This document shows positions 3,358 through 19,781 of a stretch of DNA of 64,000 nt, piece after piece. The first letter of the stretch is position 1; every line of letters begins with the position of its first letter. The notes beneath the pieces were generated by a model. The model searched no databases, was not told the origin of the DNA, and saw only the letters and a program-made list of their open reading frames with translations. A program made the translations under genes and the position numbers. Source of the stretch: Nitrososphaerota archaeon (lineage in GTDB: Archaea > Thermoproteota > Nitrososphaeria_A > Caldarchaeales > Caldarchaeaceae); assembly GCA_041641305.1 (NCBI GenBank), contig JBEPYN010000001.1:512001-576000 (forward strand), given 5' to 3'.

Positions 3358-3618
3358 CCCTCTTAACAGGCTCAGTCAGAGAAACTCTCCGCCAGTCGCG
3401 TAGAAGAGCCCAGAAAGCGGCCGTCAAGAAAATGAAGAAGACGAGGCCTGACACGATGTCTATGCCCTGCGGTATCCCCGTTAGACGGCCGCTTAGCTGC
3501 AGCAGGACTAACCCCCTCCCCGCAACCGACACCGCCGCGGCGACTATTATAACTTGTGGCCTAATTTGCTCGACTCTATGCCCTATTCTCCCGCCGCTCG
3601 CTCTCCTCCAGTAGGACT
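3320..3618 (-). pseudogene. Small membrane protein, apparently 5'-truncated at the island boundary
   Basis: The 3320..3532 frame stays open upstream (VLLEESERRRIGHRVEQIRPQVIIVAAAV) to about 3618 without a good start; two hydrophobic segments. Confidence 0.4.
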
Positions 3619-3630
3619 TAGAGGGGTGAG

Positions 3631-3731
3631 AGTGAAGGTAGGTCGTAAGCCTTACTGTTCATATGCAACCAACATTGAGACCTGAGAAGCGCCGAGACAA
3701 AGCCGTAGAAAGGCCTCGAAAACCGGAAAAG
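3631..3731. repeat. Dispersed ~100-bp non-coding repeat, copy 1 (copy 2 at 61550-61652)
   Basis: Colinear by-eye alignment AAGGTAGGYCGTAAG...GCAACCA...AGACAAAGCC..AGAAA. Confidence 0.7.
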
Positions 3732-3873
3732 TAAGAGAAGAAAAGGCATCTTTTAAGAGATTATCCTATCCTTACCAGCCTCTAATATACTCTCTTTATG
3801 CAACCAGTAAAGAAGTGAACATCAGGAAGAGTCATAAGGCATAAATAATTAAGGAAAAAATGAGGGGATGGTT

Positions 3874-4026
3874 GGCTGGCAGGCACCCAACCAACAACAT
3901 CTAGGAAACCCAAAAAGAAGCCGGCCGTTTAAGAGTTTAGCGAGGCGTAGACATCGCCCGTTTAATAGTCGGGCGTACCGGCTTCTGGGTTTTATCCTTG
4001 TTGTTGGGCCGGTACGCCTGCCAGCC
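3874..4026 (-). ncRNA. Putative guide (bridge-RNA/tigRNA-like) hairpin RNA overlapping the 3' end of the IS110-like gene
   Basis: Nested stems GGCTGGCAGGC/GCCTGCCAGCC, CCAACAACA/TGTTGTTGG, AAACCCA/TGGGTTT and GAAGCCGGT/GCCGGCTTC enclose an 18+18-nt internal loop capped by GGCG-ATGTCTA-CGCC. Confidence 0.55.
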
Positions 4027-4834
4027 TCTCCTGGGTTTCCCGTCTGATTGTCAGCCAGATTGTTTTTAGTAGTTCTTGTTGTTGTTTTCCTCGAGGTATC
4101 CCATGTAGGACCATTGTTAGCCTTGTCAGGGCCTGTCTGACACCATGGTTGTATCTCTTCTCCCGTCTATTGCCATGGAGTTTTAGATAGTTTCTCACCT
4201 TTGTGAAGGATTTGCTGAAGTCTATAAATGTCAAGAGCTCCGCCAAAGCCTCCCTAGACGTCAAATGATTGTCACCAGATAATCCAAGTTCTTCTACAAG
4301 CCTGTTGTAGACTGGGTATCTTATGCCAGCCTCCTCCGAAATAATTTCTGCCAGCTCTCTCATTCTCTCCTCGTTGAACCTTATCACCGTCCTCAGTATT
4401 CTTCTCTCCATCTCCGAGACTGCCTTAGACATGTTGAGTAGTCTTTGATGAGTTTTTAGGAGGCTTCGGAAAGCGGCTATCATCCTCCTCATTATGAGGA
4501 AGTCTTCATCAACTCTGCGGAACCACTTCTCTTCAATAGCCATCAGAGCCTTGATGTCAGCTCTCGCGGACTTGGATTTTATGTTCAGCCTCTGCCTCAC
4601 CACCTCAATCATCGATAATCTCCGAAGATAGTAGACCTCTGCGCCTCTCCTCAGAAGCATTATGAAACCATCTGTGTGGATTATTGGGATGGTGTCGACG
4701 AATACCTTGTCTCCCGGGCCTGCCGGTATATCCACCGGAGAATCAACATGCCTAAAGTTTTCACCGTCCGTAGTGTAGGTTACCCGGTATCCGGTGTCAT
4801 CCCTCTTCCTGTGAACATCGCAGTAGAACCTCAT
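3992..4834 (-). CDS. Compact IS110-family-derived protein (RuvC-like N-terminus, coiled coil, truncated Tnp/Nop-like domain; TasR-like)
   Basis: FYCDVH resembles GIDV; KSARADIKAL resembles KTDxxDA; ALAELLTFIDFSKSFTKVRNYLKL resembles LAEIGDxxRFxxxxxLxxYxGL; only 280 aa. Confidence 0.6.
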   Translation of the reverse strand: MRFYCDVHRKRDDTGYRVTYTTDGENFRHVDSPVDIPAGPGDKVFVDTIPIIHTDGFIMLLRRGAEVYYLRRLSMIEVVRQRLNIKSKSARADIKALMAIEEKWFRRVDEDFLIMRRMIAAFRSLLKTHQRLLNMSKAVSEMERRILRTVIRFNEERMRELAEIISEEAGIRYPVYNRLVEELGLSGDNHLTSREALAELLTFIDFSKSFTKVRNYLKLHGNRREKRYNHGVRQALTRLTMVLHGIPRGKQQQELLKTIWLTIRRETQERLAGVPAQQQG

Positions 4835-5209
4835 CTACACCACCTTCCTTAGGACTATGGCGTATTCGTGGTAGAGGTCGTGGTTATGACCCTTGACTGT
4901 ATGGTATTTGGCGAAGTGGCCGTTTGAAAGCCTGAACTTCAAGGCCTCGACATGCCGGAGACCAACGTATTCTGCGAGCTCCTTGGTAAGCTCTACGAGG
5001 TTCTTACCTCGTCTGCATCTGTCGCAATTCCTCATCCTGCTTCCGCAGTGGTCGCAGTATGTAGAGAGCCATCTCTGCAGCAAGTATTCTCCGTAGAATC
5101 CGCCTAGGATGCCCACAACCATCAGAAGAACACCCTCGAACAAACGCCCCTCATTGACCAACTGAATCCCGTAGACAAGAGCTATCGCAACCAGCGCAGG
5201 CATCAGCAT
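4835..5209 (-). CDS. Small membrane protein with CxxC-x5-CxxC zinc finger
   Basis: Likely ATG at 5209 after GAGGGTG; two TM helices, then CDHC..CDRC; its TAG stop abuts the ATG of the IS110-like gene. Confidence 0.6.
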   Translation of the reverse strand: MLMPALVAIALVYGIQLVNEGRLFEGVLLMVVGILGGFYGEYLLQRWLSTYCDHCGSRMRNCDRCRRGKNLVELTKELAEYVGLRHVEALKFRLSNGHFAKYHTVKGHNHDLYHEYAIVLRKVV

Positions 5210-6822
5210 ACTGCTGGACACCCTCTGCACCCCCACACCATTCCTCCGCGGCCGATGGGCAGTGTTTCCACGGATGGGTCGGACCCGCCCATCCGCAGAG
5301 TCCCTGGCCATCCAGACGACCTTACCCCCGGGAACCAGGGGTTTTGGAGGGCTTGGAGACACATATTCCCTCCCCATGAATGGGGGAGGCGGCCTATGAC
5401 AGCCGAGAAAATCTCCAAACCCTCTCAAAGCCGTCTGGAGAATGGTGTGGAGAACGTTAACAGAACATCGTAACCATCTGTCCCCGCCCACGGATTTGGA
5501 GCCGCTCCCACCAAGCGCCTCCATGACGCCATGATAGGGAGAACCCGTGGAGGAGACACCATGCCTCCCCCATGGAAAAACAGGCTCCAAGAATTCCCAG
5601 GCGGAGTATCTGAACAAACGTCTGACTATCTTCTGCCGGTCGCCTGTCCTGTCCACGGTGTCTAGGGGGCTGTGTAGTCATGCGTAGCACGGCCTACACA
5701 CCCCGCCATGCCAACCATGCGTAGCACGAGAAGGCATGCTTTGTCGAGACACCTGGACAGGCTTCAGCCGCATCGGCTCCGCCCCGGCTCCGTCATGCGT
5801 AGCACGGCCGAAGCCTTTCCCATCCCATGCATCCCGGAGAAGCCTGTCATGCGTAGCACGGCCAGGCAACTCCACAGAGACACCCGTCATGCATGGCACG
5901 GCCGGGTATCTGGGGCGGCAGATGCATGGGCTGGAGCGGAGCCGGAAGCCAGCCAACCACCCCCGCCACCCCACAAACAATTGAATGGGGTGGACGCCAT
6001 CTCTCAGGCGTATATGGGAAAAAACAAGGAGTGTTTGGATGGCTGGAGTTGTTCAGCTATGTTTGAATTAAAATTCTCCCGTTATGGGCTCAGGATGGCG
6101 GGGAGAGTCAGCCAACCTTCCCCCTCTATCCGGGCTTGTAGCCGTTTCTTCGACCCCTTTCCCCTGCTGCGGCTTGGGGATTTCCTTTGCGAGGGGTCTT
6201 TGGGCGAACGGCGGTCAGCCCGGCGCGGACGCCCAGCAAAACATGGAGAAGAGAAGGGTTCTAACGGGTTAGAATCATGTTATTGCCCCAGCCTATTCCA
6301 CCCCCTTGGATGAACCGTCCAGCACCCGTCTTTCCCCGGAGCGGTCTAGTGCCCAGGGCTTGGATAAATCATCCATGCACCGGAGCGTCCCCGAGCCTCA
6401 CCGGACCATGCCCTTAGCGGGCAAGCCATCAACCCGGAGAACCCTAGACCATATCCGGAGAGGCGGCAGCTCATCCAAGGGAGCAGCCCATCATCCCGCG
6501 GAGACGCTCAGGCAAAGCCTATAAGGAGGACTCTACTCCTCCCTATGGGCATCCCTGCCACGCCTCTGTGGTTCGGGGGGAACTCTGGGCGGCTGGGGTG
6601 CCCTCTCCACTCCATGTCCGCAGCGCTCCTATGCTTGCCGGCTTCGACGACCTGCGTGAATGTCGGGGGACTTTGGGGACAGGTTTGCCGGCACCCATCC
6701 CCTCGCCGCAGCCTTTTCAGGCTGTGGACCGGTTCCGCATCCGGCTCCCCAGCTCAGCCCCGTCGCCGGGGCTTCATGGGAAGCTCACGCAAGCCAGCCA
6801 ACCCCTTGGAGAGGCTGGTCTA
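5210..6822 (-). ncRNA. Putative large structured ncRNA or ssDNA structural region
   Basis: No credible ORF; many perfect stems, including 11-bp long-range pairings 5233-5243/5440-5450 and 6303-6313/6471-6481; lies downstream of a TATA at about 6847-6853. Confidence 0.45.
5671..5910 (-). repeat. Array of five hairpins with conserved apex (GGCCGTGCTACGCATGAC) and variable complementary flanks
   Basis: Cores at 5677-5694, 5716-5728 (partial), 5792-5809, 5846-5863 and 5886-5903 (variant). Confidence 0.85.
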
Positions 6823-6842
6823 ACATCATTTCCCCAACCTCC

Positions 6843-7051
6843 CCCATATAAAGTTTTGGTGGCAAACCTGAACGAGATTTGAACGAGAGTTGAACGAGAA
6901 ATGTACGACGGCGGCTAATATTGTTCAACGCCTCTCTGGTGAGCCAAAAATCCGGCGAATCAGGCTGACCATAATTGTTCAATCTCGTACAAATCTCGTT
7001 CAGTTCTCGTTCATTTCTCGTTCAAGTTTGCCACCAAAAGTTTATCTAGGG
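6843..7051. promoter_or_regulatory. Palindromic divergent promoter pair with 11-bp iterated TGAACGAGA sites (or plasmid-type origin)
   Basis: ~60-bp inverted arms, each with 3x TGAACGAGA(NN) plus TGTACGA, ending outward in GCCACCAAAA-(C/G)TTTAT (BRE-TATA-like). Confidence 0.7.
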
Positions 7052-7448
7052 TTCCTTACGTCTCAGACTAACCTATTTAAAGGTATATGGTTGAAAACCG
7101 CGGACAAGCAACCCCAATTCCAGGAAATTTCGGGGTTCTGGAGAGACCTAAAATTTCCTGTAAACGCTGTTTTTCAGCCAAGTGTCTATCGGTTGACAAA
7201 TTATAGTCAACCCCCTTCCGTAGAAGGGTGAAATTTCGGGGAATTAGGCGCGGTAATACGGTGACCAAAATTACTTGGCTATGGTAATGCCTCTTGTCTC
7301 TATGGCTTGTAGAGGCGATTTTTCAGCTTTCTGGGACGGGTTTTTGAGATTTTTTGTGGGCTGCTCGTCGTTTGTCGATTCTGAGGAGACGATATGTGGA
7401 GGCTCGTGGTTTATCCGTCTATATGCTTGCCGCCGTATCTGCTTCTAT

Positions 7449-8009
7449 GTGAAGAATAGGAAACAGGGTAGAGGGCGGTACATTGTTCTCGTCCCAGCGG
7501 TGTTGCTGATGGTTTTCACAATATACCTTATGCTGACCCCTCCTCAGACAACGGACTCAGTTAATGTGACGAACAGAGCCACAGCACCAGACTTCACGCT
7601 CGAAACAATAGACGGCAAAGGGTTGACAGGCGGAACACTATCCTTCTCAAGCCTGCGGGGAAAACCCATACTCATAGACTTCGTATTCGAATGGTGTCCA
7701 CACTGCAACAACATGGCGCCTATCATGGAGAGGCTCCACAAAGAGTATGGAGACAGGGTAACATTTGTCACGGTCATGGGCTCTCAGAACACCAATCCCG
7801 AGAAGTCTGCAGAGTTCCTAGCTAGACATGGCGTAAAATGGGCGGCGGTATACGACAAAACGATGAAGACATTCATTGACTACGGTGTGAGGGGGACGCC
7901 TACATACGTATTCATACGACCAGACGGGACAATACTACGCAAATTACCGGGAGAACCGCCATACGAGACACTCAAGCTCTCCGTAGAGGAGCTATTAACA
8001 GGGCTCTAA
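7449..8009 (+). CDS. TlpA/ResA-like membrane-anchored thiol-disulfide oxidoreductase
   Basis: TM anchor, APDFTL, WCPHC, YGVRGTPT; likely GTG start at 7449. Confidence 0.9.
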   Translation: MKNRKQGRGRYIVLVPAVLLMVFTIYLMLTPPQTTDSVNVTNRATAPDFTLETIDGKGLTGGTLSFSSLRGKPILIDFVFEWCPHCNNMAPIMERLHKEYGDRVTFVTVMGSQNTNPEKSAEFLARHGVKWAAVYDKTMKTFIDYGVRGTPTYVFIRPDGTILRKLPGEPPYETLKLSVEELLTGL

Positions 8010-8104
8010 ACGCCCTCTGAGTTAGCAGACAAGTTGAGAAAGAAATGGCTTCTGAGGTGGAGAAGAGGAAGACAATACGAGTCAGGCATTAAAACCATAT
8101 AAAC

Positions 8105-8830
8105 TTGGACAATAGCTCTTCGTCATTGGCGATGCCGAGGAAAACAAATCGCTCATATATACTGCATCGAGGTATTGGGAAAGTTGAGAAAAAAGCTACT
8201 TATGAGGAGCTAAACCTGAAACTGCTTGAACTCTTATCCGACTGCTGGGACAGAGTCATATCGCTCGATTTTGAGACATACGTTGTCGAAAACAGATTCT
8301 TGAACGATGAGAAAATACTGTCAGTTAGTTTCGCTAGGAGGGTTTCGGGGAAAACAATGCAGGCTGAAGGTATCGAGGTTAAGTCTAATGTTTTAAATAA
8401 AGAAGACAAAGACTCTGAAAAACAAATGCTTGATTGGTTGGATGAGGAGCTGGGGAAGATTAATCCTCTCGGAGTCGTAGGATATATGCTCAGAGCGTAC
8501 GATATTCCGCTTTTAATAATGAAAAAAGAGCGCAACAAGGTGGAAGGCTCACCGTACTGGAAAATAATAGACCTAACAGAGAACGCAGTACATGTGGACC
8601 TCTACCACCTGCTCAGGGACAGAGGTTACAATAATCTGTACGACGCCATATCATCACTATCCCAAAATCTTCCTCTAAAGAAAGTAGAAGATTACTTATC
8701 TCAAAATAGAGAAATGAAGGGAAAAGCTGTCAAAGAGTTATGGGAAAAAGGGGCACTCAAAGAATACAACGAAGGACATGCATATAACATGTTGCTGATT
8801 GCGGAATGGCTCACATTCGGAGGAGAGTAA
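8105..8830 (+). CDS. DnaQ/PolB-type 3'-5' exonuclease-like protein
   Basis: ISLDFETY (ExoI) and GYMLRAYDIPLL (ExoII); ExoIII is atypical (YNEGH); start may be 8131. Confidence 0.6.
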   Translation: MDNSSSSLAMPRKTNRSYILHRGIGKVEKKATYEELNLKLLELLSDCWDRVISLDFETYVVENRFLNDEKILSVSFARRVSGKTMQAEGIEVKSNVLNKEDKDSEKQMLDWLDEELGKINPLGVVGYMLRAYDIPLLIMKKERNKVEGSPYWKIIDLTENAVHVDLYHLLRDRGYNNLYDAISSLSQNLPLKKVEDYLSQNREMKGKAVKELWEKGALKEYNEGHAYNMLLIAEWLTFGGE

Positions 8831-9233
8831 TGACAACCGTATACTATTCCGATTGTCCATCCGAGAGGCTCGCTGTACTCCTTCACAATCTCGTCATATG
8901 TTGTGAAAACCCTTCTCTTCACCAACTTTGACCTGCTCTTCACCAACCCATCACATCATGTAATAATCCTCCCATATAACGCTAGGATGCCATCATATAG
9001 AAGTGCTTCCTTGACCATGTTTTGGCAGACTCAGCAGCCAAATATAGCCGTGTCTACCGCAGTCTCTTTCTCCAGGGTAGGTTAACGAGTCGGCTTCAGA
9101 TACACCAACACCGCCATATACTATCTATCAGCGTTTTCGATAACGCTTCTGCTCGCCAACATGGGTATGAGCTATGGGTTCTTCGGATTCTTCAAACTAT
9201 GAGGATGTAATCGCTCATCGGGCGAAACAATGA

Positions 9234-9587
9234 CTAGAGCCAGACTCCTTTCGCCCCGACGCATCTGAGAACCATCAAGTTTTTCTCGTTGTCGGGAATA
9301 TTTTTGCCAGAAACAGACGCTCTCTGCGGGGCCGAAAGCACGTAGAACAGCTCTTCACCAACCTCTGCTATGTCTCCTACAGTGAACTTCAGCAGCCACT
9401 TCCTCAGAAGCTCGAGCGTCGGAGCATGTCTGACGTATACGATGACTTTATCATATTTCTTAGCGTCGGCCGCGAGCTCATCGAGAGAAGAGCTGCTAAC
9501 CTGTATACAGAAGCTTGGAAAAAGGCTAGAGAAAGCTGACGGCGGCAAAGACGGCAACACCTTAAGGACATTCTTTCTCGCACTCAT
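9234..9587 (-). CDS. DUF1874 (STIV B116/AcrIII-1)-like protein
   Basis: 117 aa; SLDEL..VIVYVRHAPTLELL..YVLSAPQR..GK parallels the family pattern SLEE..SAIGHxxTAxLL..FQLxxRLxEGK. Confidence 0.45.
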   Translation of the reverse strand: MSARKNVLKVLPSLPPSAFSSLFPSFCIQVSSSSLDELAADAKKYDKVIVYVRHAPTLELLRKWLLKFTVGDIAEVGEELFYVLSAPQRASVSGKNIPDNEKNLMVLRCVGAKGVWL

Positions 9588-9715
9588 GAAGTCGATTTCT
9601 CAGCCGAAAAATAAAAGGCATCATCTGCATAATGGAACCGTCAGAAATTGTTGAATGCAACCTTGCCCGGGTGGTCTACGTTTGGCCGGAAACGGTTAAT
9701 ACTGGGAGAAGTTTT

Positions 9716-10354
9716 ATGATGGCGATGAATCCCGGCAAGGTATTGCCGGCTATCCTGCTTGTTGTAGGCCTGTTGGCCGGGTTCTTCAGCGGCTCGGTTC
9801 TAAGCCCCGTAACAGTCACCAGCACGTTGGTCAAAACCTCCATTTCGACAAGCGTAAGCACGGAGCAGGTGACAAAAACTGTGTCCACCACCGTGACTTC
9901 GTACGAGACCCTTAGATGGTCTACTACGCTTTTCGTAACGGCCCGCACCACGTTAACTTCGGTCTCAACCAGTATCTCCACCCGGACAACCACGGTTACA
10001 TCGACCACTACCGCAACCACTACAATGGTTTCAACCGTTTACCCCGCCGTCTCGGGAACCGTGCTGGTGAGAGACAGAGGCAGCGGCTCTAAGGAGACGC
10101 CGCCGTTCACGCTCGAGGCGACCTCAGACCTAAGGATAAAAATCACGATAAGGGCTACGGCCGACCTCCGATACGTCGGCTTATATTGGTACCTGTATGA
10201 AGTGGGCGATGACCTATCCTATAAGAGGGGCTCTATTCTAGAGGAGCAGGGGTCCTTCGAGTTCTACGCCGCAGCCATTCCGCCCGGTAACTGGTACATA
10301 CAGGTGAACGCCGCCAACTGCAACTGGGAAATCACTGTCGAAAAAGTTACTTGA
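9716..10354 (+). CDS. Membrane-anchored Thr/Ser-rich surface protein with C-terminal beta domain
   Basis: N-terminal TM, long T/S/V tract, PPC-like C-terminus (PPGNWYIQV). Confidence 0.7.
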   Translation: MMAMNPGKVLPAILLVVGLLAGFFSGSVLSPVTVTSTLVKTSISTSVSTEQVTKTVSTTVTSYETLRWSTTLFVTARTTLTSVSTSISTRTTTVTSTTTATTTMVSTVYPAVSGTVLVRDRGSGSKETPPFTLEATSDLRIKITIRATADLRYVGLYWYLYEVGDDLSYKRGSILEEQGSFEFYAAAIPPGNWYIQVNAANCNWEITVEKVT

Positions 10355-11957
10355 CAGATTCCGAGAACTCTCTCCATCTTTCCAGCATAATTTTCCGCCT
10401 CTCCTTCAGGAATTCTTCATAGTTCTCGCGTTTCCATAGCTCAGGGTCGAGCGGAATGCAGTGCTCCCGTAACAGAGCAGGGTCCTGGTCGTAGAGTTTG
10501 CTGAGATACTCCGACGGCTCTTTATCCCTCAGAGTCTTGTTACTCAGGCTTGAGAGAAATGTGATGTTTGCCGCATCATTCTCCAGCTCGGGGTCTAGCA
10601 ACTTCCTTTTGAAAAGGTATTGTGGGAAGATGTGGTGCTCGTTTATCTCACTATCTCTTAGCTCCCATATCTTATCCGGGTCACCCCCATCCCTGGGCGT
10701 CCAGTCACGGGCATTATAAGATTTGAGGAGAATAGATAGCAGGGTTCGGTGCTCGTCGGAGAATTCCCGCTCCAGATAGTCGGGCAAGAGCTCCTTCACC
10801 TTCAGATTTTCTACTAGTCGTCCAACATCCCAACTATTCTTCACCGATTCCAAGTCTTCTAAGAGGTCGCTCTCCAGCCGTCCAGTATATCTGCCATTGA
10901 ACGATGCCAGTACAAGCCACTTAACCAGCTCATGTTTAAACTTCTTGTCAACCAGCTTGCCCTGTGACAGATAGTTGTTATGCATGATTATCGCGGGCAT
11001 GACGGGGAGGTAATGCGATACCAAGAACTTCGGCCTGGCTCCGTATTCCTGGAATATGTCGAGAACACTCTGGATAGCCTTGAACGTATTGTTTAAGTAT
11101 TTGAGCAAAGTCTCGGAATTGTTCCTCATCAGCTCATTCAGAGCCGGCTTAAATTTTACCTGACCAGTTGCAATGGCTAAGTATGCCCGTATAAGAGGCG
11201 GGGCGTCGACATCATATCCCCTGGTTTGCAAGTCGCTCAGCAATGTTTCAAACTGGTCCCTGAACCTCTTTCCCTGTTCATGTATGATTTTACCGGACAG
11301 GAGCGCTAATACGAGGTCGTGTAGCTTCACCTTGGTTCCCTGGCTGTTCAAGGCCACGAACATCCGCGAGATATTCTCGAAGGCCTCGAGATGGTTATCC
11401 CTGCTCCACTTTATCGTAACCTCCATGAAGGTCACCTTGTAATCGTTGAAACGCTGCCAAAGCCTCGTCAGGCTATCGTAGATTTTCGGTTGTCTCACAG
11501 AATGCTTCTGAACCAATTCAGAATATTCCCTCGCCTGCAACACCTCTGACACTTTGTACAAGTTACCGCCTGGATTAGTTCTGCCTCGGCCAAGAATGAA
11601 TTTCTCGTTCAATGCATCGAATAGAAGGTTAATCCTTTTTGTTTCCTGGTTTATGGTTATTTCGCCATTATTTATCAGGAGTAGAGATGTCAGCCTCTGT
11701 CTGCCATCAATCACCATGTAGCGTCCGTTCTTTAAATTCATGTTATCGGCGATTGGCCTGAAAATGTTTTCGAGCTCCTCACGCACATCCGTAGGTATCT
11801 CGGCCACGCATATCGACCCTATTGGAAAACCGTTGTAAATAGACTCCGCGAGCTCCAGCACCTGCCTGTTACGCCATACAAAGGGTCTCTGAATATCAGG
11901 GACTATGAACTCACCCTGCTCAAGCTTAGACATCAAATCCCTAAGGAGCATATCCAT
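10347..11957 (-). CDS. gmrSD: GmrSD type IV restriction endonuclease (DUF262 + DUF1524)
   Basis: PDIQRPFVW, IDGRQRLTS, FVALNSQG and C-terminal EHHIFPQ...ANITFLSSLSN. Confidence 0.85.
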   Translation of the reverse strand: MDMLLRDLMSKLEQGEFIVPDIQRPFVWRNRQVLELAESIYNGFPIGSICVAEIPTDVREELENIFRPIADNMNLKNGRYMVIDGRQRLTSLLLINNGEITINQETKRINLLFDALNEKFILGRGRTNPGGNLYKVSEVLQAREYSELVQKHSVRQPKIYDSLTRLWQRFNDYKVTFMEVTIKWSRDNHLEAFENISRMFVALNSQGTKVKLHDLVLALLSGKIIHEQGKRFRDQFETLLSDLQTRGYDVDAPPLIRAYLAIATGQVKFKPALNELMRNNSETLLKYLNNTFKAIQSVLDIFQEYGARPKFLVSHYLPVMPAIIMHNNYLSQGKLVDKKFKHELVKWLVLASFNGRYTGRLESDLLEDLESVKNSWDVGRLVENLKVKELLPDYLEREFSDEHRTLLSILLKSYNARDWTPRDGGDPDKIWELRDSEINEHHIFPQYLFKRKLLDPELENDAANITFLSSLSNKTLRDKEPSEYLSKLYDQDPALLREHCIPLDPELWKRENYEEFLKERRKIMLERWREFSESVK

Positions 11958-12162
11958 GTCGTGGAAAAAATCAACGAGAAGTATAAATCTTAAGCGACAT
12001 TTTTCTCAACCCCTGCCTCCAATGCTTCGTTCTCCGCCACTAGACAGACTGAGCTGCCACCCATTATTCCACAGAATCATATGTTCCTACCGTTCCCATC
12101 AACCCTCTGAAACAGCCACGTTCTCTTAAAACTTAATTTTTAAGGTCAGGATTATAGTTTTC

Positions 12163-15100
12163 ATGAATTTTGGGCTTGATTTCTGGGTGGCTTGTTTATC
12201 TGAGAGAGGCTACCAACTTCATAGAGACAAGCTTGACATCGAAACTCTGTTCAAGACAAGGGTTCTTCTCAGCAGTGATGTGAAGGAGGCTTACCTACTC
12301 TATAGAGATGATTTTGTAGAGGTTGTGGCACTAATTTTTGACGAGCTTCCAGGCAGGGGTTATTGCGCTAGGATTGCTCGGCGATGGCGTGAAAAAAGAC
12401 TGCTTAGGCCTTTCCTGATATTTACCGACAATATTTCGTCTTATGCGGTGATTGTTAGAGGGCCGGGGCTGGGTGAGGAGGTTAGAGTGCTGCATTTAGA
12501 GGGGCAGTTGTATAGAACAGATTTGGAGGCTCTCGAGTCAGTAACCCATCCAGGAAAACCTGACGAGCTCAGGAAGAAATATGATACGGAGTTCTTCCCA
12601 TATGAAAAGGTTAGGGAAGAGTTTTTCCAGCAGTATAAGAAACTGTTTGAGAAAGTCATTGAAATCGTTAAACCCGTTTTCGGAGAGAACCGTGCTAAAG
12701 AATATGCTCAACGGTTTCTAGGCAGGCTGATGTTTCTCTACTTTCTCCAGAGAAAGGGGTGGTTAAACAACGATAGACAGTTCATAAACAAGTTGTCCGG
12801 TTTCAGAGAGCTTAACAGAGTCTTCTATGAGCTTTTAAACAAACCGGGGGGAGGAGACGGTGTACCATATCTAAACGGCAGCCTCTTTGACAGGGAGGAG
12901 TATCTAACAGCTGAGGCTGAGAGAAAGATAGAGAAGAAAATGGATAGTTTGTTTAATGAAGCTAGGGAGGTGTTTAACCGATACAACTTCACCGTCAACG
13001 AGACTTCGCCGCTGGAGGTTGAGGTAAGCGTAGACCCTCTGCTGCTGGGAACAGTTTTGGAGAACATGCTTCCCGAGCATGAGAGGGGAGCCAAAGGAAC
13101 CTTCTACACACCGGTCAACGAGATAAACTTCATCTGTAGAAAAGCTATACAGGCTTGGCTGGGCCTAGAGGACAGGGTAGACGAGACAGGGACCAGGCTA
13201 ATCGACGGGCTCGAGGAATACATCAACCAGTTAAAAGAAAGGCGGGACGAGGCGGAGATAAGAGAGTTCAGGAACAGGCTTCTATCTTTGAAAGTATGTG
13301 ATCCCGCCGTCGGCTCGGGAGGGTTCCTCGTGGTGATGATGCAGACGATACTGAGCCTTATTCAGGAGGTTGAGGAGGCTGTAGGCTGGCACGCCGACCC
13401 AGCTATCTACAAGTCGAGAATCCTACCCAACCTCTATGGATTCGACATAGAGCCCGAGGCCGTCGAGATAGCGAGACTCCGTCTATGGCTCTCCCTCGTA
13501 GTTGACCAGAAGAAACCCGAGCCACTCCCCAACCTAGACCTAAACATCATGGTGACAAGCGACTCCCTCAGCCTCCCACAAGGTGGACAATCCCTTATCG
13601 ACCAATACTACACATCTAGCAGGATTAGAGAACTGGTCGACAACCTGAACGAGCTTAAAAAGAAATACACAACCGAACACAATCCAACAGCGAAGAAAGA
13701 GCTTCAGAACCGCATCGAGAAAATCTGGCGAAAACTTGTGGAGGAATTTGGGAGCGAAGAATTAAAGACTCTACCGCTTGAGCTAATCATGATGAGCCGA
13801 CCAGACATAATAGTGATGAATCCACCCTACGTAAGACAGGAGAAAATACCTCCTAGAACAAAGGAGCACTATGTAAAGAGCTATAGACTGGACAGGACAT
13901 CGGACATCTACGCATTCTTCATGAAAAGAGCCCTTAACTTACTTAATGAGAAGGGTGCAGCATCCATAATATCATCCGACAAGTGGCTCGAGGTCGGGTA
14001 CGGCTTAAAGCTGCAGGAGACGCTGAAACCCCATCTCCTGGCTGTCTACGGCCAGCGTGAAAGAAGCTTCGGAGCAGACATAAACACAGTAATAACAGTG
14101 CTCAGAAAAGAAAAACTACCAGACAACCACAGCATACAGTTCATCTACCTAAGCAAATACGGCGAAAAAACAGTCATCAACCACAAATCCATACCAAGAG
14201 GAGAGCTCAAGCCAGGGAAATGGTACTACCTAAGAGCACCGAAAATATTCGAAGAAACCCTACTACCAAAACTAACCCACAAGCTGAAAGACTTCGCCGA
14301 AATAAAATTCGGCATTAAGACCGGTGCTAATGAGTTCTTCTACATGAAGGACGTCAGCCACCTATACGAGGCAGACTACCTAGCAAACCCAAGAAGATTC
14401 CACGAATGGGGAGTAAATGCACGAAACCAAAAAGAACTCGAAGAACAAGAACTTATATACATAGAGAATGAAGCAGGAAAAAGATTCGTGATAAATAAAA
14501 AAGATGTAAGACCTATTCTCCGGTCGCCAGAAGAAATTCACGAATATATGTTTTCACAATTCAAGAAACTCTGTCTGTATACAAGCAATCCAGGTTCATT
14601 AACCACAAAATACATTAGAAAATATGAAAAAGAGGGAATACACCGCCGATCCACTCTCAGAAATAGGTCACCTTGGTGGAAACTTCCAGAGTTAGAAACC
14701 ACTAGTATCGTTTTGATAAAGTCATTCCACAATGTAATTTATGAACCGATATGTCCTAAACCCGTTCTCGTGGACCAGAGAGCTTATGTATTTAAGCCCC
14801 GCAACCTCAAATCATTAGAAGATGTGTGGAAGTACTTCAACAGCACGATTTTTTACTTAACTATCGAACTTTATTGTGATAGGTTGGGCGGAGGAGCGAC
14901 AGATATCAGGGTCGAAGATTACAAAGAAATGCCAGTCCCCGACTTGTCCCGATTACATATAGCGTTTGACGCTAAAAGGTTGTGGAATAGAAAACCATTA
15001 CCTTACAATGAGGAGGTGCAGCAGGCTGATAGACGAGAATTAGACAAAGCTGTGCTTAGAGTCCTAGGCTTCCCCGAATCCGAACTAGATAGGCTTGTCG

Positions 15101-15210
15101 ATGAACTTCACAAGGCTTTTGTATGGGTTGTCGAGGACCGCTTGATAAAATCCGGCAGACCTCTACACGTAGAAGAAGAGGAAGGGGCTGTGGTTGACGA
15201 AGATAGTTGA
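12163..15210 (+). CDS. Large N6-adenine DNA methyltransferase (Eco57I/type IIG-like)
   Basis: GTFYTP, motif I DPAVGSGGF, motif IV MNPPY, YLNGSLF, C-terminal TRD-like region. Confidence 0.9.
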   Translation: MNFGLDFWVACLSERGYQLHRDKLDIETLFKTRVLLSSDVKEAYLLYRDDFVEVVALIFDELPGRGYCARIARRWREKRLLRPFLIFTDNISSYAVIVRGPGLGEEVRVLHLEGQLYRTDLEALESVTHPGKPDELRKKYDTEFFPYEKVREEFFQQYKKLFEKVIEIVKPVFGENRAKEYAQRFLGRLMFLYFLQRKGWLNNDRQFINKLSGFRELNRVFYELLNKPGGGDGVPYLNGSLFDREEYLTAEAERKIEKKMDSLFNEAREVFNRYNFTVNETSPLEVEVSVDPLLLGTVLENMLPEHERGAKGTFYTPVNEINFICRKAIQAWLGLEDRVDETGTRLIDGLEEYINQLKERRDEAEIREFRNRLLSLKVCDPAVGSGGFLVVMMQTILSLIQEVEEAVGWHADPAIYKSRILPNLYGFDIEPEAVEIARLRLWLSLVVDQKKPEPLPNLDLNIMVTSDSLSLPQGGQSLIDQYYTSSRIRELVDNLNELKKKYTTEHNPTAKKELQNRIEKIWRKLVEEFGSEELKTLPLELIMMSRPDIIVMNPPYVRQEKIPPRTKEHYVKSYRLDRTSDIYAFFMKRALNLLNEKGAASIISSDKWLEVGYGLKLQETLKPHLLAVYGQRERSFGADINTVITVLRKEKLPDNHSIQFIYLSKYGEKTVINHKSIPRGELKPGKWYYLRAPKIFEETLLPKLTHKLKDFAEIKFGIKTGANEFFYMKDVSHLYEADYLANPRRFHEWGVNARNQKELEEQELIYIENEAGKRFVINKKDVRPILRSPEEIHEYMFSQFKKLCLYTSNPGSLTTKYIRKYEKEGIHRRSTLRNRSPWWKLPELETTSIVLIKSFHNVIYEPICPKPVLVDQRAYVFKPRNLKSLEDVWKYFNSTIFYLTIELYCDRLGGGATDIRVEDYKEMPVPDLSRLHIAFDAKRLWNRKPLPYNEEVQQADRRELDKAVLRVLGFPESELDRLVDELHKAFVWVVEDRLIKSGRPLHVEEEEGAVVDEDS

Positions 15211-18200
15211 CAATTCAAAGGAAACTCTGCAGAGTGTTCTTTTGAAGGAGTTACAGGAGGTTTCTGAGGTTGCTATCGCGACAGCGTACTTCAACATCAC
15301 GGGCTTCGGCGACATAGAGCCCGGCTTAGCAGACAAACCTCTACGCCTCCTACTAGGCAGGCCTCCCACCGAGCAGATAGAATGGGAGGAAGAAGTTCTT
15401 AGAGAGCTTGAGGAATATGAGGATGACCCTCGATACTTCAGTCTTCTGCAGAGAGTGATAACGTTTTTTGAACATTATTCTAGGGAGGTGAGAATAGTTG
15501 ATGGAAAGTTTTTCCACGGCAAGGCGTTTCTGGGAGTTCACCCGTCTTTCCAAGACGTTAGGAGGGGGTTTGCATCCGTGGGCTCAAGCAACTTCACCCA
15601 TGGAGGACTGGTTACCAACAGGGAGCTGAACATGTTCACAACGGATAGGGAGACTGTTCAAGAGCTGGCGGAATGGTTTCAAAAACAGTGGAGCGATATG
15701 TTTTCAAGAGACTATAAGAACGAGTTCCTAAGCCTTCTAAAAACATACGTCACCTCATGGAGTCCATACGAGGTCGCGGCCAAAGCATTGTGGGAAACCT
15801 ATAAAAAAGATTGGGAAACCAAGAGGCCGAATATACTCAAAAACCTGTACCCGCATCAGCAGCTAACCTTCATAGACGCATTAGACAAGCTGGAAAAATA
15901 CGGCGGCGTAGTTATCGCCGATTCCACGGGTCTTGGAAAAACCCTTACGGCCTTGGCCATAGCTCACTACTATAAGGGTCTTGGTGTCAAGTCTCTGCTC
16001 ATAGCTCCCAAAAGCATACTCGACACTACTTGGATGACCGAGATGGATAGCTCCGACATATGGGTTAAGTGGATAAACTCCGAGAAACTTTCAGCAGACC
16101 CAGAAATAGTGGAACAATATGTAAACAATGATAAAAGCATTGGGTTGATTATCGTTGATGAGGCGCATTATTTCCGCAATCCTGCAACAAACCGTTACAA
16201 CGCACTAAGCAAGCTGATTAAACTTACCAGGTCCAAGGTGGTTCTGGTAACTGCCACACCTGTAAACACAAGCCTCATGGACCTGTACCACATAATGGCG
16301 CTCTATCTTCCAGACAACATCATATTTGACGAATACAGAACTACGCTGGGAGAATATTTCATACAGAGCCAGAAAAAATGGCTGAACAACGAGCCAGTAG
16401 ACATGGAAGATATTCTGAGGAAATTCGTGGTGAGACACTCTAGACAATTAGCAAAGGCGCTGGACAGGGAGGGCAGGATAAAATTCCCGGAGAGACAACT
16501 ACACACCATAAAATACGACCTGCCACTCGACGTGGAAAAACTATACAATCTCCTCGACAAACTTAACCTATATTTCTACGAGCTCAGCGTAGACAAGCTC
16601 TCTCAACAGTTCAGGCTACCTGATGGAACACCCGCCATAAAATATGAGAAACAAGCCGAAAACCTGAAAGACCTGATAAAGGTGATACAGAAGATAGGTC
16701 TTCTCAAAAGACTGGAAAGCAGCATACATGCGTTCAGAGAATCCATCAACAGAATTAAGAAATACATTGAGTACGCAACAATCTATGCAGAAAAAGAATC
16801 CATATTCATACCTCCCAAGCTCAAAGGGGACCTGTTCGCTCTGCTCGGCGAAGAAGAGGAACAGGCAACCCTTCCAACAATGGAGGACCTATTCTATAAA
16901 CATCGACACCTTCTCGAAAAATGCAGTCTAAGCAACCATGAGAAACAAAAACTTATCCAGAGCAACAGGGAAGACCTGAAGACAATTGAAGAAGTGATAT
17001 CGCTGCTACCCGCCAGAGACACAAAAATTGATGCTTTTCTAAAGGAAGTTAGCGATGTCGCCAAAAAATTGTCAAAAAGGAACGGCATAATAATATTCAC
17101 CCAATACATCGACACAGCAAAATACGTTTTCGATGCCCTCAGAAACAGCTACCCGTACTCTATCCTCGTAACAGGCGAGGGCGGAAGAGATAGCAGTGGT
17201 AAGAGAATTGAGGAGGCCGAGGCTGTTGAACACTTTCAGAAAAACGGAGGCATATTGGTTAGCACAGACGTTTTGAGCGCCGGGCAAAACCTCCAAAACG
17301 CTCAATACATAGTCAACTACGACTTCCCATGGAACCCCGTAATACTTATACAAAGGGCTGGGAGAGTTGACCGAATAGGCTCCCCCTATGACAGCGTCTA
17401 CCTCTTCAACGTTCTACCCCATCAAGGAGGCCCCGACGACCCAACCAGCCTCGAATACTTCCTGGGCCTCATGACGAGGCTCTACCAGAGACTTGAGGCC
17501 ATCAGAGCCACCATAGGGCTTGACGCATCAACCCTGGGTGAAGAAGCCATACCTAGAGACTATACAGAGCAGAGAAGAATAGCCGCCGAGGACAAAAAAG
17601 TTTTAGCGGAGCTTGAGAAAAAACTTGAGCAATTCACGAAAGACCCGTTGGACGACCTAGCCCAAATAATCAACGAGAGAGGAATAGACTGGGTTGAGAA
17701 GCTTCCCAACGGAATAGGAGCGTTGAAAAAAGACAGCTTCGACGCTGTTTTCGCCCTCTTCACAGACGGGCAACAGCACTACTGGAGGTTGAAAAACCTA
17801 GACACGGGCGAGACCTTGACGAAGCCGTCCGAGATAGTTCCTATCCTGCTCCGCGGGGACGTTCACAGCAAAGGAGAGAGGATAAACTACGACATATTAG
17901 TGGATAAGCTGAGACAATTAAAAGAGGAGCTCAGAACAGAGCTGTTGAAAAAACAGACAATAACCACAACCATAGAAGACATCCCAGTATCGGTTACCAA
18001 AATCGTTAAAGAAATATACGAGGCACTAGAGAGGTTGGGAGAGGAGGGAATAGTTTTAGCCGCAAGGTTCAGAAAACAAGCCAACAACCCAACCACCGTC
18101 AAAATACTGAAAAAAGCACTAGAGGAGGGAAAACTACTCGAAGAAGCAAGGAAAATCCTCAAAGAAGACACCCAAACCAAAGCATCAAACAACAACCAGA

Positions 18201-18265
18201 CACTAAAAATCAAAAGAATATGCTGGTGCTACATAAGGAAGGAAAACCAACCCAACAACCCGTAA
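15194..18265 (+). CDS. PLD nuclease domain fused to SNF2-like SF2 helicase
   Basis: FHGKAF..GSSNFT (PLD), ADSTGLGKT, DEAH, TATP, QRAGRVDRIG; overlaps the methyltransferase stop. Confidence 0.9.
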   Translation: MTKIVDNSKETLQSVLLKELQEVSEVAIATAYFNITGFGDIEPGLADKPLRLLLGRPPTEQIEWEEEVLRELEEYEDDPRYFSLLQRVITFFEHYSREVRIVDGKFFHGKAFLGVHPSFQDVRRGFASVGSSNFTHGGLVTNRELNMFTTDRETVQELAEWFQKQWSDMFSRDYKNEFLSLLKTYVTSWSPYEVAAKALWETYKKDWETKRPNILKNLYPHQQLTFIDALDKLEKYGGVVIADSTGLGKTLTALAIAHYYKGLGVKSLLIAPKSILDTTWMTEMDSSDIWVKWINSEKLSADPEIVEQYVNNDKSIGLIIVDEAHYFRNPATNRYNALSKLIKLTRSKVVLVTATPVNTSLMDLYHIMALYLPDNIIFDEYRTTLGEYFIQSQKKWLNNEPVDMEDILRKFVVRHSRQLAKALDREGRIKFPERQLHTIKYDLPLDVEKLYNLLDKLNLYFYELSVDKLSQQFRLPDGTPAIKYEKQAENLKDLIKVIQKIGLLKRLESSIHAFRESINRIKKYIEYATIYAEKESIFIPPKLKGDLFALLGEEEEQATLPTMEDLFYKHRHLLEKCSLSNHEKQKLIQSNREDLKTIEEVISLLPARDTKIDAFLKEVSDVAKKLSKRNGIIIFTQYIDTAKYVFDALRNSYPYSILVTGEGGRDSSGKRIEEAEAVEHFQKNGGILVSTDVLSAGQNLQNAQYIVNYDFPWNPVILIQRAGRVDRIGSPYDSVYLFNVLPHQGGPDDPTSLEYFLGLMTRLYQRLEAIRATIGLDASTLGEEAIPRDYTEQRRIAAEDKKVLAELEKKLEQFTKDPLDDLAQIINERGIDWVEKLPNGIGALKKDSFDAVFALFTDGQQHYWRLKNLDTGETLTKPSEIVPILLRGDVHSKGERINYDILVDKLRQLKEELRTELLKKQTITTTIEDIPVSVTKIVKEIYEALERLGEEGIVLAARFRKQANNPTTVKILKKALEEGKLLEEARKILKEDTQTKASNNNQTLKIKRICWCYIRKENQPNNP

Positions 18266-18316
18266 CAACATGAACCTGTGAAAAAACGTATAAAGCCACT
18301 GACCAAGTATTTAGAC

Positions 18317-18534
18317 GTGGCTGCTATCTAGGAAATTACCAGAATCTATCTTGAGACAGCTCAGACAGACTTGGGTGCGGCCAACTTCCTCTACCAGAAG
18401 GAATTCTACCCGCATGCTTTAGACAAGTATTCGAACTACGATAAACCTGGGGAAATAATCAGAGGCGCCAAACAGATTCTAAGGAGCCTGATTTTTAACC
18501 AGAATTTGAGCGCTGTACCTTCTCCACGCAATTA
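18317..18534 (+). pseudogene. HEPN-domain fragment with premature amber stop
   Basis: GTG-GCT-GCT-ATC-TAG, then EITRIYLETAQTDLGAANFLYQKEFYPHA, resembling a HEPN N-terminus. Confidence 0.5.
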
Positions 18535-18578
18535 GGCCTCATCCGTTTTTATGCCTGTATGTTTGGGTTACTATCTCG

Positions 18579-18956
18579 ATGAAGTGTGGTTTGGCTGTTT
18601 TGCTTGTTTTGCTGGCTTTTTTGCCTCTGGCAGCTGCTGAGCCGGGGTTCTTCTTCAGAGTAACCGACTGCGCCACCGGAGAGCCCATTGCCGGGGCGTT
18701 GGCGGCCATCATACGCGGAAGCTATGGCAACGGCGTGTCCACTAACGCAACCGTATACGCATACTTCGATTCACCTTACGGAGAATACACCTATTATATT
18801 TCCATGCAGGGCTACAGGATGGGAGGCGGGGAAGAAGTGAAAAGCATGAAGAAACCCTCCAGATACAGAAATACAGCAGATATTTCACCTCATCGAAGGT
18901 ACGGGCTGAGACATAATAGCTACTTGACAGGTTTTCATTCACGCCATGAAGCCTGA
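18579..18956 (+). pseudogene. Truncated paralog of the N-terminus of the 19786..22290 surface protein
   Basis: RVTDCATGEPIAGA/STNATVYA/YTYYISMQGYR vs RVTDCITGAPIQGA/ITNSTGYA/YSYYVTASGYR; similarity then stops. Confidence 0.6.
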
Positions 18957-19189
18957 GAATTTCAGATTTTCGTGGCCAAACATCCTTATTCCTTGAAATT
19001 TTGCCTCTCTAAGGTTTACGGATAGGGAATCTTCGACTTTAGTCCCTCTCGAAAGATTATATGCTGTTTAGCGGTGGTGTTTACGCTGGTGGGCTGAGTT
19101 TGACCCATCAGCATTGTATATCGGATTTCTTTCCCCGAGAGGGTTTTTGAGAATATTGAGACTCACCCGTCTATGAGGCCACGGGCACG

Positions 19190-19630
19190 ATGAGGCTAAA
19201 GGTGAGCAAAAAGGTCTGGAAAGAGCTTAACATCCCAGATAAGGGTGATTTCAAGGCTGTTGTAAGGGGTAGGATGTTTAAAAGCAGGTATGATACTACG
19301 GCTGGTCTAAGGCTGCGGATACCCAGCCACTATACATACCTGTTTAGGGAAAACGGCTTCATGGAGAATGGGGAAAATAATGGTCAAAGGAGTTTGTTTA
19401 TTGACCTTTGGGTTGAGGACGGTATGCTATGCATGTCATACAAGCCTGACGAGGAATATGACCATTACGAGAATATACCGATTTTTAAAGCACCTAATTA
19501 TGGGAAAGGAGTTGGTTTCTGCGCAAGATGCCAAATAGGATATATTATCGAATTTTCTCCTAAGTGTCCTATTCATGGTATAACTAAGAACAAAACCAAG
19601 AAAAAGAAAAACAACAACATAACTAATTAA
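19190..19630 (+). CDS. Hypothetical protein with C-terminal zinc ribbon
   Basis: 146 aa; CARC...CPIHG. Confidence 0.5.
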   Translation: MRLKVSKKVWKELNIPDKGDFKAVVRGRMFKSRYDTTAGLRLRIPSHYTYLFRENGFMENGENNGQRSLFIDLWVEDGMLCMSYKPDEEYDHYENIPIFKAPNYGKGVGFCARCQIGYIIEFSPKCPIHGITKNKTKKKKNNNITN

Positions 19631-19781
19631 TCATGCGGCGGGCGCCATTGAGTTTAAAGAAGCGTCTGAAGATACCCAGGTTCAGCTCCCTCGCTATGCC
19701 GTAAACCATCCAGGTCAGGACAAGCGTCAAAATGAGCGTGACGAAGACCATCACAAACTCCAAGTCGGTGGACGACGTCAT
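19623..19781 (-). CDS. Small single-TM protein (52 aa, not in ORF track)
   Basis: MTSSTDLEFVMVFVTLILTLVLTWMVYGIARELNLG... starts 4 nt after the upstream stop. Confidence 0.5.
   Translation of the reverse strand: MTSSTDLEFVMVFVTLILTLVLTWMVYGIARELNLGIFRRFFKLNGARRMIN

Follow-up and report, generated by a model that had tools for sequence, protein, structure and literature searches.

A symmetric RNA loop encoded just past the end of a 280-amino acid (aa) open reading frame (ORF) on the minus strand of an archaeal genome very likely forms the target-reading part of the guide RNA of an RNA-guided mobile element. The locus lies in a 64,000-nucleotide (nt) stretch from a hot-spring Nitrososphaerota archaeon of the Caldarchaeales (assembly GCA_041641305.1, contig JBEPYN010000001.1, positions 512,001–576,000; herein referred to as the window, in whose numbering positions are given unless a contig or locus is named). 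The genome (code G000) comprises 1.66 Mb on four contigs, of which contigs 1 and 2 are referred to as C1 and C2. In four independent copies of the element (the window copy, c4 from the same genome, G009b and G004a), the guide sequences correspond to the empty site at the exact synteny break. The element is best read as a new variant between TIGR-Tas and IS110 that has no catalytic serine, a single guide loop and no array.

Architecture and covariation of the guide RNA

A preliminary description of the window, made from its sequence alone, had proposed a symmetric internal loop at 3917–3985 of the minus strand, closed by stems and divided by a GGCG(ATGTCTA)CGCC hairpin; the sequence is as it was given, and the architecture is kept in all four paralogs of this genome and in 15 further copies (table 1). 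This inner module starts 6 nt past the stop codon (3992–3994) of the 280-aa ORF and is only the tip of a longer conserved, covarying hairpin (4026–3874), whose outer stem pairs GGCTGGCAGGC (GGCUGGCAGGC; 4026–4016) with GCCTGCCAGCC (GCCUGCCAGCC; 3884–3874). A 101-nt stretch folds at −36.1 kcal/mol (z −3.85) and is more stable than 200 of 200 shuffles. The minimum free energy structure of the single sequence adopts a CGCCCG/CGGGCG pairing that the preliminary description had raised as a caveat; we nonetheless chose the symmetric fold because the comparison of copies settles the matter. The contigs of the paralogs cease to match at 3851–3853 and 4846–4847, the boundaries of the unit, and blastn among the copies is concordant. 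An Rfam scan of the window returned three tRNAs only and assigned the guide RNA locus to no known RNA family. The mRNA of the 280-aa protein probably gives rise to the ~153-nt hairpin RNA at its 3′ end.

Covariation was assessed on an alignment of 18–19 copies from a dozen genomes, with 500 shuffles and slid-partner controls. The family layout consists of a basal stem, A-YGN, an 11-nt loop, ACR and a covarying hairpin, followed by a second A-YGN/loop/ACR set, and the consensus of the 11-nt loop is C, 6–7 variable nucleotides, a T-rich stretch and an invariant A. All 8 of the 8 aligned pairs of the central hairpin are changed on both sides (19 sequences), giving 47 double-sided changed cells compared with 17.1 ± 3.5 in shuffled alignments (0/500 reaching the observed value) and 17–23 in the slid controls; RNAalifold recovers 26 pairs, 8 of them with compensatory changes, the outer stem included. 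Frame positions A11, G13, A25, G56 and A69 are invariant, and column entropy is near zero at the frames and at the loop-terminal A, intermediate at the T-rich triplet and 1.4–1.9 bits at loop positions 2–7. The 5′ frame (A-UGU, A-UGA, here A-CGC) partly pairs with the 3′ frame (ACA/ACG) at both loop ends, and the frames covary, UGU:ACA giving way jointly to CGU:ACG (pair 12–72 is UA in 6, UG in 5 and CG in 3 sequences). A covariance comparison of homologs had been expected in the preliminary description to find the framing motifs fixed and the 9-mers variable, which is the pattern obtained, the hairpin covarying as well. Its two 9-nt guides within framing motifs thus hold as variable loops in fixed frames but not in their register, since the comparative 9-mers CGACTATTA and AAACTCTTA (as RNA CGACUAUUA and AAACUCUUA) lie one base 3′ of those first drawn.

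Guide variability is also evident within a single genome. One genome with ~40 copies (80–94% mutual identity) has the constant scaffold GGGCU-N9-UAAU-hairpin-GGCU-N9-UAAU, in which the first six bases of each N9 vary from copy to copy. An nhmmer profile run on the genome of the window copy found exactly four RNAs, each beside its own gene, and zero orphan copies; the same one-gene-one-RNA layout recurs in 19 loci of other genomes. The 3′ ends of the guides are T/A-rich and resemble a TATA box. Between the window copy and its syntenic ortholog in G009, the guides are identical at 17/18 positions, the protein at 61% and the adjoining KaiC at 90%.

Table 1. Features of the window copy, its surroundings and copy c4 (window positions unless a contig is named).
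Feature	Position	Strand	Basis or remark
IS110/TasR-like protein gene, 280 aa	3992–4834	minus	ORF
Whole structured guide RNA, ~153 nt, long outer hairpin	3874–4026	minus	overlaps last 35 nt of gene
Inner module: basal stem, two guide loop strands, central hairpin	3917–3985	minus	sequence, fold, comparison
Basal stem, 5′ strand	3985–3977	minus	GAAGCCGG(T), then A, CGC
Basal stem, 3′ strand	3925–3917	minus	(G)CCGGCTTC; as RNA CCGGCUUC
5′ framing motif A-CGC (family consensus A-UGU/UGA)	3973–3976; second copy 3940–3942	minus	alignment, column entropy
Guide strand A, 11-nt loop CCGACUAUUAA	3962–3972	minus	register parsed by comparison of copies
3′ framing motif ACG (consensus ACR, invariant A before it)	3959–3961; second copy 3926–3928	minus	alignment
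Central hairpin GGCG(AUGUCUA)CGCC	3944–3958	minus	4 bp here; 7–8 bp in most copies
Guide strand B, 11-nt loop UAAACUCUUAA	3929–3939	minus	register parsed by comparison of copies
T-run (3855–3860), 3′ limit of unit shared by paralogs	3852–3860	minus	sequence, contig matching
Near junction, host half-site CGACTATTA	3541–3549	plus	end of homology of G001, G005, G008, G010
10/11 match to guide-B half-site, TTAAGAGATTA	3753–3763	plus	inside inserted DNA, 199 nt from near junction
Far junction ATT-GAGTTTA, other half-site	19647–19656 (GAGTTTA 19650–19656)	plus	mapping of relatives' right flank
DNA between half-sites, 16.1 kb	3550–19646		guide module at one end, methyltransferase-like remnant, G+C-rich structured stretch, defense-type genes
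Last 57 codons of upstream ORF	4838–5008	minus	homologous to end of methyltransferase-like gene preceding other copies
Thioredoxin-like gene	7275–8006		Pfam
RNase H-like exonuclease	8105–8827		
GmrSD_N gene	10350–11957	minus	Pfam
Eco57I/MmeI-type methylase, 1015 aa	12163–15207		Pfam
SNF2/ResIII helicase with PLD domain, 1023 aa	15194–18262		Pfam
Copy c4	C2:461971–462816		this genome

Guide sequences and empty sites at synteny breaks

The guides of the window copy predict the duplex CCGACTATTAAGAGTTTA with a TTAA core, and the one-base shift in register leaves it unaffected. This target, already named in the preliminary description, is borne out by four relatives without the insertion (G001, G005, G008 and G010), in which an uninterrupted site lies at the synteny break. 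Homology between these relatives and this genome runs to window position 3549 and then continues uninterrupted in the relatives through the target site, which reads GCCGCTATTAAGAGTTTA (GCCGCTATTAAGAGTTTAAAG) in G010 and GCGGCTATTAAGATTTTA (GCGGCTATTAAGATTTTAAAG) in G001, G005 and G008; the 1.5 kb that follow the empty site map to window position ~19650 onward. At the near junction, where synteny between G000 and G009 picks up again, the plus strand reads GGCGACTATTA (3539–3549) followed by inserted DNA from 3550 (TAACTTG...), and the reverse complement of guide strand A matches the core and the host flank. At the far junction, the plus strand reads GCGGCGGGCGCCATT-GAGTTTAAAG (19636–19659; GAGTTTAAAG is CTTTAAACTC in gene sense), guide strand B has the same sense as the other target half and the core, and the half-site is preceded by a direct repeat of the left flank, imperfect and ~15 bp long (19636–19649). 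A site rebuilt from the two junctions of this genome agrees with the 18-mer of the preliminary description at 17/18 positions, and the sites of the relatives agree with it at 15/18.

The other three copies score 16/16 (c4), 15/17 (G009b) and 15/17 (G004a). Homology of the c4 flank with the related complete genome G009 begins precisely at TTTATAACATC, which agrees with the reverse complement of guide A at 10/11 positions, and G009 has the uninterrupted sequence CACCAACCTTTATAACATC there. Overlapped on TTTA, guide B of c4 (CCCAACCUUUA) and the reverse complement of its guide A (TTTATAACATG) give the composite CCAACCTTTATAACAT, which matches G009 in full at that point (0/200 shuffles do so); in this genome, its halves stand at C2:346800 (left) and C2:463468 (right), with TTTAT at each. 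In the case of G009b, downstream homology with this genome begins exactly at the guide-A match, and the empty site in this genome (C1:22607) reads TAAACTCTTATAGAAGA, the predicted sequence being CAAACTCTTATAGAAGG. G009b is a 1298-bp element with both junctions in the locus and TCTT on both sides, and it contains only the TasR-like gene and its RNA. The composite of G004a, CCTGCTTCGTAAGAGCG, matches TCTGCTTCGTAAGAGCA, centered on the anticodon of the tRNA-Val(UAC) of this genome, and in G004 the 5′ half of tRNA-Val ends at the junction of G004a. The flanks of a further copy, in G037, are separated in G017 by 1.4 kb of other DNA, which is not a clean empty site.

Searches by pattern give these correspondences their proper weight. 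Allowing 3 mismatches, a search of the genus for the 18-mer recovered the syntenic sites together with chance and control matches; the pattern alone is therefore not significant, and its significance lies in its position at the synteny break. Single-guide matches (≥10/11) within ±1.5-kb flanks are weakly enriched (cognate 5/48, noncognate 11/528), a figure that is meaningful only once the junctions are located by synteny. Intact composite targets in this genome (A followed by the reverse complement of B, or the reverse complement of B followed by A, gaps of −3 to +3, at most 3 mismatches) occur at chance level, as expected if the sites are occupied. Pairs of half-sites within 60 bp, in any orientation, are at or below shuffled expectation for three copies and number 17 versus 9.4 for c4, with zero sites in the validated arrangement. 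Complementarity of the guides of this genome to its small-subunit (SSU) and large-subunit (LSU) rRNA reaches 8–9/11 at best, which is chance level, and there is none to its tRNAs. The 10/11 match at 3753–3763, which the preliminary description had offered as a target half, is real but lies inside the inserted DNA, and two such window matches occur in 23/100 shuffles.

Several further arrangements were observed around the half-sites. In gene sense, the order at the near end of the window copy is module, B-like half-site (3753–3763), 199 nt, A-type half-site (3543–3553) and host, and the B-like half-site perhaps survives from an earlier event. A 478-bp copy of the 5′ part of gatD (G000:C2:462985–463467; L063 5986–6464), 87% identical to the real gene (C1:747812–748289), stands between the host junction of c4 and the element itself. 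This copy starts at TTTATATCATG and is followed by TTTATAACATC; each of the two agrees with the reverse complement of guide A at 10/11 positions, which would suit the use of a look-alike site. The guides A and B of paralog c2 are found adjacent on one strand at C1:454522–454540 (AAATTAAAT-A-TCACAATAA, with a single mismatch over 18 positions). This point lies 13.6 kb upstream of c2 and ~190 nt from a ~47-nt repeat described below, and the arrangement is outside the validated geometry.

The 280-aa protein and its known relatives

The 280-aa protein has zero matches in Pfam, NCBIfam (E ≤ 0.1) and PADLOC, DEDD_Tnp_IS110 (PF01548) and Transposase_20 (PF02371) included, and 10 distant full-length relatives are likewise without a Pfam domain. 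Its more than 537 homologs, all annotated as "hypothetical," come from Caldarchaeum, related metagenome-assembled genomes and metagenomes, the named ones belonging to Candidatus Caldarchaeum. A profile search of 1.84 billion representatives returned only 193 clusters, many of them fragmentary, and no link to the very large IS110 family at E ≤ 0.001. A sequence profile compared with the PDB gave coiled-coil matches only, which we judged to be due to chance.

Structure prediction places the protein more clearly. An AlphaFold (AF2) model built on 35 homologs (pLDDT 90.7) predicts a RuvC-like N-terminal domain, a coiled coil (approximately residues 110–172) and an all-helical, Nop-like C-terminal domain, and its best Foldseek matches are ISCro4/IS621 and TasR (IS110 E 2.7e-7, TM 0.64). 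Structural alignment (VIA-align) gives Z 16.0 for TIGR-TasR 9mty_A (rmsd 3.5, 240 residues), Z 14.4–14.6 for the IS110 recombinases IS621 and ISCro4 (252–253 residues), Z 12.7–13.5 for C-terminal parts of TasH and Z 7.2 for Nop5 (~142 residues). The acidic residues D6 (strand 1), D47, E66, D93 and E110 of the RuvC-like domain are invariant. A homodimer is predicted through the coiled coil (residues 117–164; ipSAE 0.81 compared with 0.00 for the best control), with at least 97% contact agreement between runs and partner pLDDT of at least 85; the score mark is attained by 20/30 solved one-chain pairs and 1/23 proteins solved as single chains, and the pass may partly reflect likeness to the solved TasR and IS110 dimers that exist.

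The system shares with IS110/IS1111 elements that use a bridge RNA or seekRNA (IS621, ISCro4; PDB 8WT6, 8WT9, 9T56; PMC11208160) the RuvC-like, coiled-coil and helical RNA-binding build of the protein, loop strands that overlap on a core and read the left and the right target half from opposite DNA strands, a core present at both ends of the insertion and, as in the IS1111 group, an RNA 3′ of the gene. Unlike IS110, it lacks the PF01548/PF02371 signatures, a conserved serine and the β-hairpin that bears it; the core, a fixed dinucleotide in IS110, is here 3–5 nt long and varies among copies, guides and site are particular to each copy, and cargo of up to ~16 kb is perhaps carried. We therefore rejected membership of IS110, given that the fold and the core-overlapping loop strands are present and the domain signatures, the serine and a second loop are absent.

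TasR with stem-loop tigRNAs (TaTasR, PDB 9MTY; PMC12045711; bioRxiv 10.64898/2026.09.09.750476) is the best structural match and likewise has a serine-less, all-helical C-terminal domain, and the predicted dimer is a further likeness; stem-loop tigRNAs are also pseudosymmetric, with two ~9-nt guides, short, mutually pairing frames and a secondary hairpin that separates the guides. Membership of TIGR-Tas was rejected in turn: the build of the protein agrees, whereas the tandem array, the box frames and the nonoverlapping spacers are missing. Instead of an array there is a single guide unit per gene, overlapping the gene end; the frames are A-YGN...A-ACR around 11 nt rather than box C CNA...box D YG; and the guides overlap by 3–5 nt on validated targets, whereas tigRNA spacers abut on adjacent 9-bp halves (PMC12045711). 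The preliminary description had invoked a dual-strand guide by tigRNA or bridge logic, and of the two it is the bridge-type overlap on a core that fits better. The targets, too, differ from those of TIGR-Tas, being the host's own insertion sites in a free-living archaeon, and the copies behave as mobile elements. Finally, the symmetric stem/box/guide/box/loop/box/guide/box/stem layout recalls that of archaeal box C/D sRNPs (Nop5, L7Ae, fibrillarin; PDB 3PLA), and the Nop-like C-terminal domain and coiled coil recall Nop5; unlike box C/D RNAs, however, these RNAs have no RUGAUGA/CUGA boxes, no rRNA or tRNA complementarity and DNA as their targets.

Proposed mechanism, alternatives and the wider family

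The two loop strands match opposite strands of one DNA site, strand B having the sense of the left half and a 3–5-nt core and strand A being complementary to the core and the right half. The core is thereby shared by both guides, an overlap that the target-binding loop of a bridge RNA also has, and the element is found inserted at the core, which then stands at both junctions (TCTT, TTTAT). In the window, the site CCGACTA-TTAA-GAGTTTA was hit, and its halves are now 16.1 kb apart around the module and defense genes. The system looks like compact, serine-less, RNA-programmed DNA insertion, in which the RNA would be expressed and bound by the 280-aa protein and the ribonucleoprotein itself would cut and join DNA, probably with a RuvC-type center because the IS110 serine is absent. 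New specificities may arise by mutation of the loop, a means of retargeting suggested by the more than 40 differently guided copies in one genome.

A bolder proposal, to which we would give somewhat less than an even chance, is that the family constitutes a third mechanistic class in the Nop/IS110/Tas superfamily, namely a 280-aa serine-less RuvC enzyme with a single-loop guide RNA that inserts DNA and does not merely cut it, at a site set by ~2 × 7 bases and a short core, that can be retargeted by loop mutation and carries kilobases of cargo, and that, as an archaeal lineage whose RNA layout resembles box C/D, could also be the kind of archaeal relative sought for the origin of Nop5. Vaysset et al. 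reportedly traced Nop5 to IS110-like ancestors and could not find an archaeal relative.

A number of observations weigh against RNA-guided insertion by this protein. The window copy has lost two bases of the TTAA core at its degraded far junction, its central hairpin has only 4 bp and 16 kb separates its half-sites. Despite an intact ORF, it may be unable to move, and some of the 16 kb may be a later accretion instead of cargo that travelled with it. Orientation is mixed among the four copies, three of them turning strand A toward the near junction and the fourth (G004a) strand B, and copies in loci L017 and L036, beside tRNA halves, match sites only in part. No junctions of c2 and c3 were found within 5 kb upstream or 3 kb downstream. 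The conserved RNA has one guide-type loop, whereas a bridge RNA has a target and a donor loop, and the donor joint of G009b, AGCCT-TCTT-TTGGGGCT, resembles the 3′ stem strand of its RNA (GGCCTCTTTTGGGG) and not its target; the analogous comparison for c4, made by eye, is weaker and in a different register. The C-terminal domain is predicted to be all helical, with a low-confidence loop at 217–229 and no serine-bearing β-hairpin, and the position corresponding to the IS110 serine holds N, S, H or K in the 35 homologs (YNH here), with no invariant serine there.

These points lend interest to a different role for the same ribonucleoprotein, that of a homing or retention nuclease that would cut empty sites only and leave host repair to copy the element from an occupied allele, the insertion itself not being made by this protein. 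We consider this unlikely, though a serious contender: the best structural match is the nuclease TasR and the recombinase serine is absent, insertion destroys the site and would render the carrier immune (no intact composite site exists in this genome), and the agreement between guide and empty site is predicted equally well. There are analogs as well in the cutting of targets by TasR and of vacated donor sites by TnpB. Homing by homologous repair, however, leaves no short duplication, yet TCTT and TTTAT flank insertions; a different self-matched site for each copy requires a first insertion chosen by the guide and not only the copying of alleles; and the 1.3-kb element contains no other enzyme. 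Insertion programmed by the element's own RNA remains the reading that we favor.

Two other explanations appear far less probable. A role in defense or regulation resembling TIGR-Tas, in which the 9-mers would act as spacers directed at foreign DNA or at promoters of the host, the family forming a dispersed "array" of single units, could draw on the stem-loop, tigRNA-like anatomy (bioRxiv 10.64898/2026.09.09.750476), the TasR-like fold, the defense genes close by and the TATA-box-like, T/A-rich 3′ ends of the guides, but we think it very improbable, as what the guides match is not foreign DNA but insertion sites of the host itself at synteny breaks, the units form no array, tigRNA spacers do not share a core as these guides do (PMC12045711) and the copies decay like mobile elements. 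It is just as improbable that mobility comes from a separate recombinase, a tyrosine integrase of the pNOB8/SSV type as Sugahara et al. proposed, the hairpin being a DNA attachment structure and its likeness to the target a by-product of recombination. The targeting of tRNA genes, the tRNA halves left behind and the imperfect direct repeat that flanks the 16-kb insertion would suit such an origin; however, Pfam detects no integrase domain in nine of the ORFs of at least 110 aa in the 16 kb, short or split genes being outside the reach of the scan, and the 1298-bp copy, unlike elements of the tyrosine-integrase type, has no second gene beside the TasR-like one. Moreover, a left half in direct and a right half in inverted orientation with a covarying hairpin between them is not a product of recombination, and the structure covaries as a single strand.

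The family itself has the marks of a mobile element, with a wide copy-number range (1 to more than 40 per genome in Caldarchaeales), fragments, in-frame stops and a patchy distribution; this genome has four full paralogs (61–77% amino acid identity) and one fragment. An "a+b" insertion was described in Ca. Caldiarchaeum subterraneum that has an 813-bp ORF with seven homologs in that genome, adjoins tRNA-Thr and splits the tRNA gene, and a plasmid-derived element with a "putative DNA recombinase" was proposed (Sugahara et al. 2012; PMC3293823). This insertion very probably belongs to the same element family, of which nine copies are present in G009, apparently the genome of that organism; the earlier account, compared with ours, is without the RNA, the IS110/TasR fold or the guide–target code, and no description of a guide RNA or guide–target code of the family was found in the literature searched. 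Intact tRNA genes (Val, Thr) also stand beside orphan tRNA halves that end in the anticodon loop, next to family elements (L020 1245–1400, L017 2554–2720, L036 1140–1293), and these orphan halves tie the element family to the splitting of archaeal tRNA genes (cf. PMC3293823).

Recurrent sequences accompany the copies. Upstream of c4, G031a and G013b lie a conserved 148-aa ORF and then a split methyltransferase-like gene (DPMxGxGG and SPPY motifs), a cassette located at L004 150–1500 (G000:C2:460620–461970) and also in L011 and L035. This gene ends at the ATG of the TasR-like gene, is interrupted at one shared position in two genomes, by an in-frame stop in one of them and by a frameshift in the other, escapes detection by Pfam and has a weak PADLOC MTase_II match. 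The window has its 57-codon remnant (67% identical over 57 aa, by tblastn, to the counterpart upstream of c4) fused to a membrane/zinc-ribbon ORF. Within the 16-kb insertion, a G+C-rich stretch (5250–6820, minus strand) is without a convincing gene, a 201-aa ORF at 5708–6313 having no Pfam match; it includes five hairpins with a constant 15-nt loop, CCGUGCUACGCAUGA, and differing self-complementary stems (5671–5907, minus strand), and a 550-bp part (5462–6010) recurs upstream of paralog c2 at 90% identity, above the identity of the genes themselves. A ~47-nt repeat with the TATA-box-like CAGGTTTATAAG occurs within the 16-kb stretch, ~200 nt from its far end (19401–19453), and at four other places in G000 (C2:518081–518127, C2:514770–514815, C2:348184–348230 and C1:454292–454342). 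Copy c3 and the gene fragment each have it ~200 nt upstream, and at c4 it lies 1.4 kb inward of the far junction. Both rRNA genes of this genome match over more than the length of their models (SSU, C2:678829–681974, 3146 nt compared with 1478 positions; LSU, C1:388887–393783, 4897 nt compared with 2987), which suggests that they hold large insertions (introns).

If our reading is true, this would be a very small, thermophile-derived system for RNA-programmable DNA insertion, made up of a 280-aa protein and one ~150-nt RNA at the 3′ end of its gene, and lacking the serine chemistry that is, to our knowledge, used by all characterized bridge recombinases. It would link TIGR-Tas nucleases and IS110 bridge recombinases, in archaea, and touch on the open question of whether the archaeal box C/D RNA-guided machinery originated from such elements. 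It would also offer a mechanism for the splitting of tRNA genes at the anticodon loop (Sugahara et al. 2012) and for the landing of integrase-less gene islands at fixed sites. Because the guide–target code can be read from genomes, the rules of specificity would be testable across hundreds of natural copies and by reprogramming.

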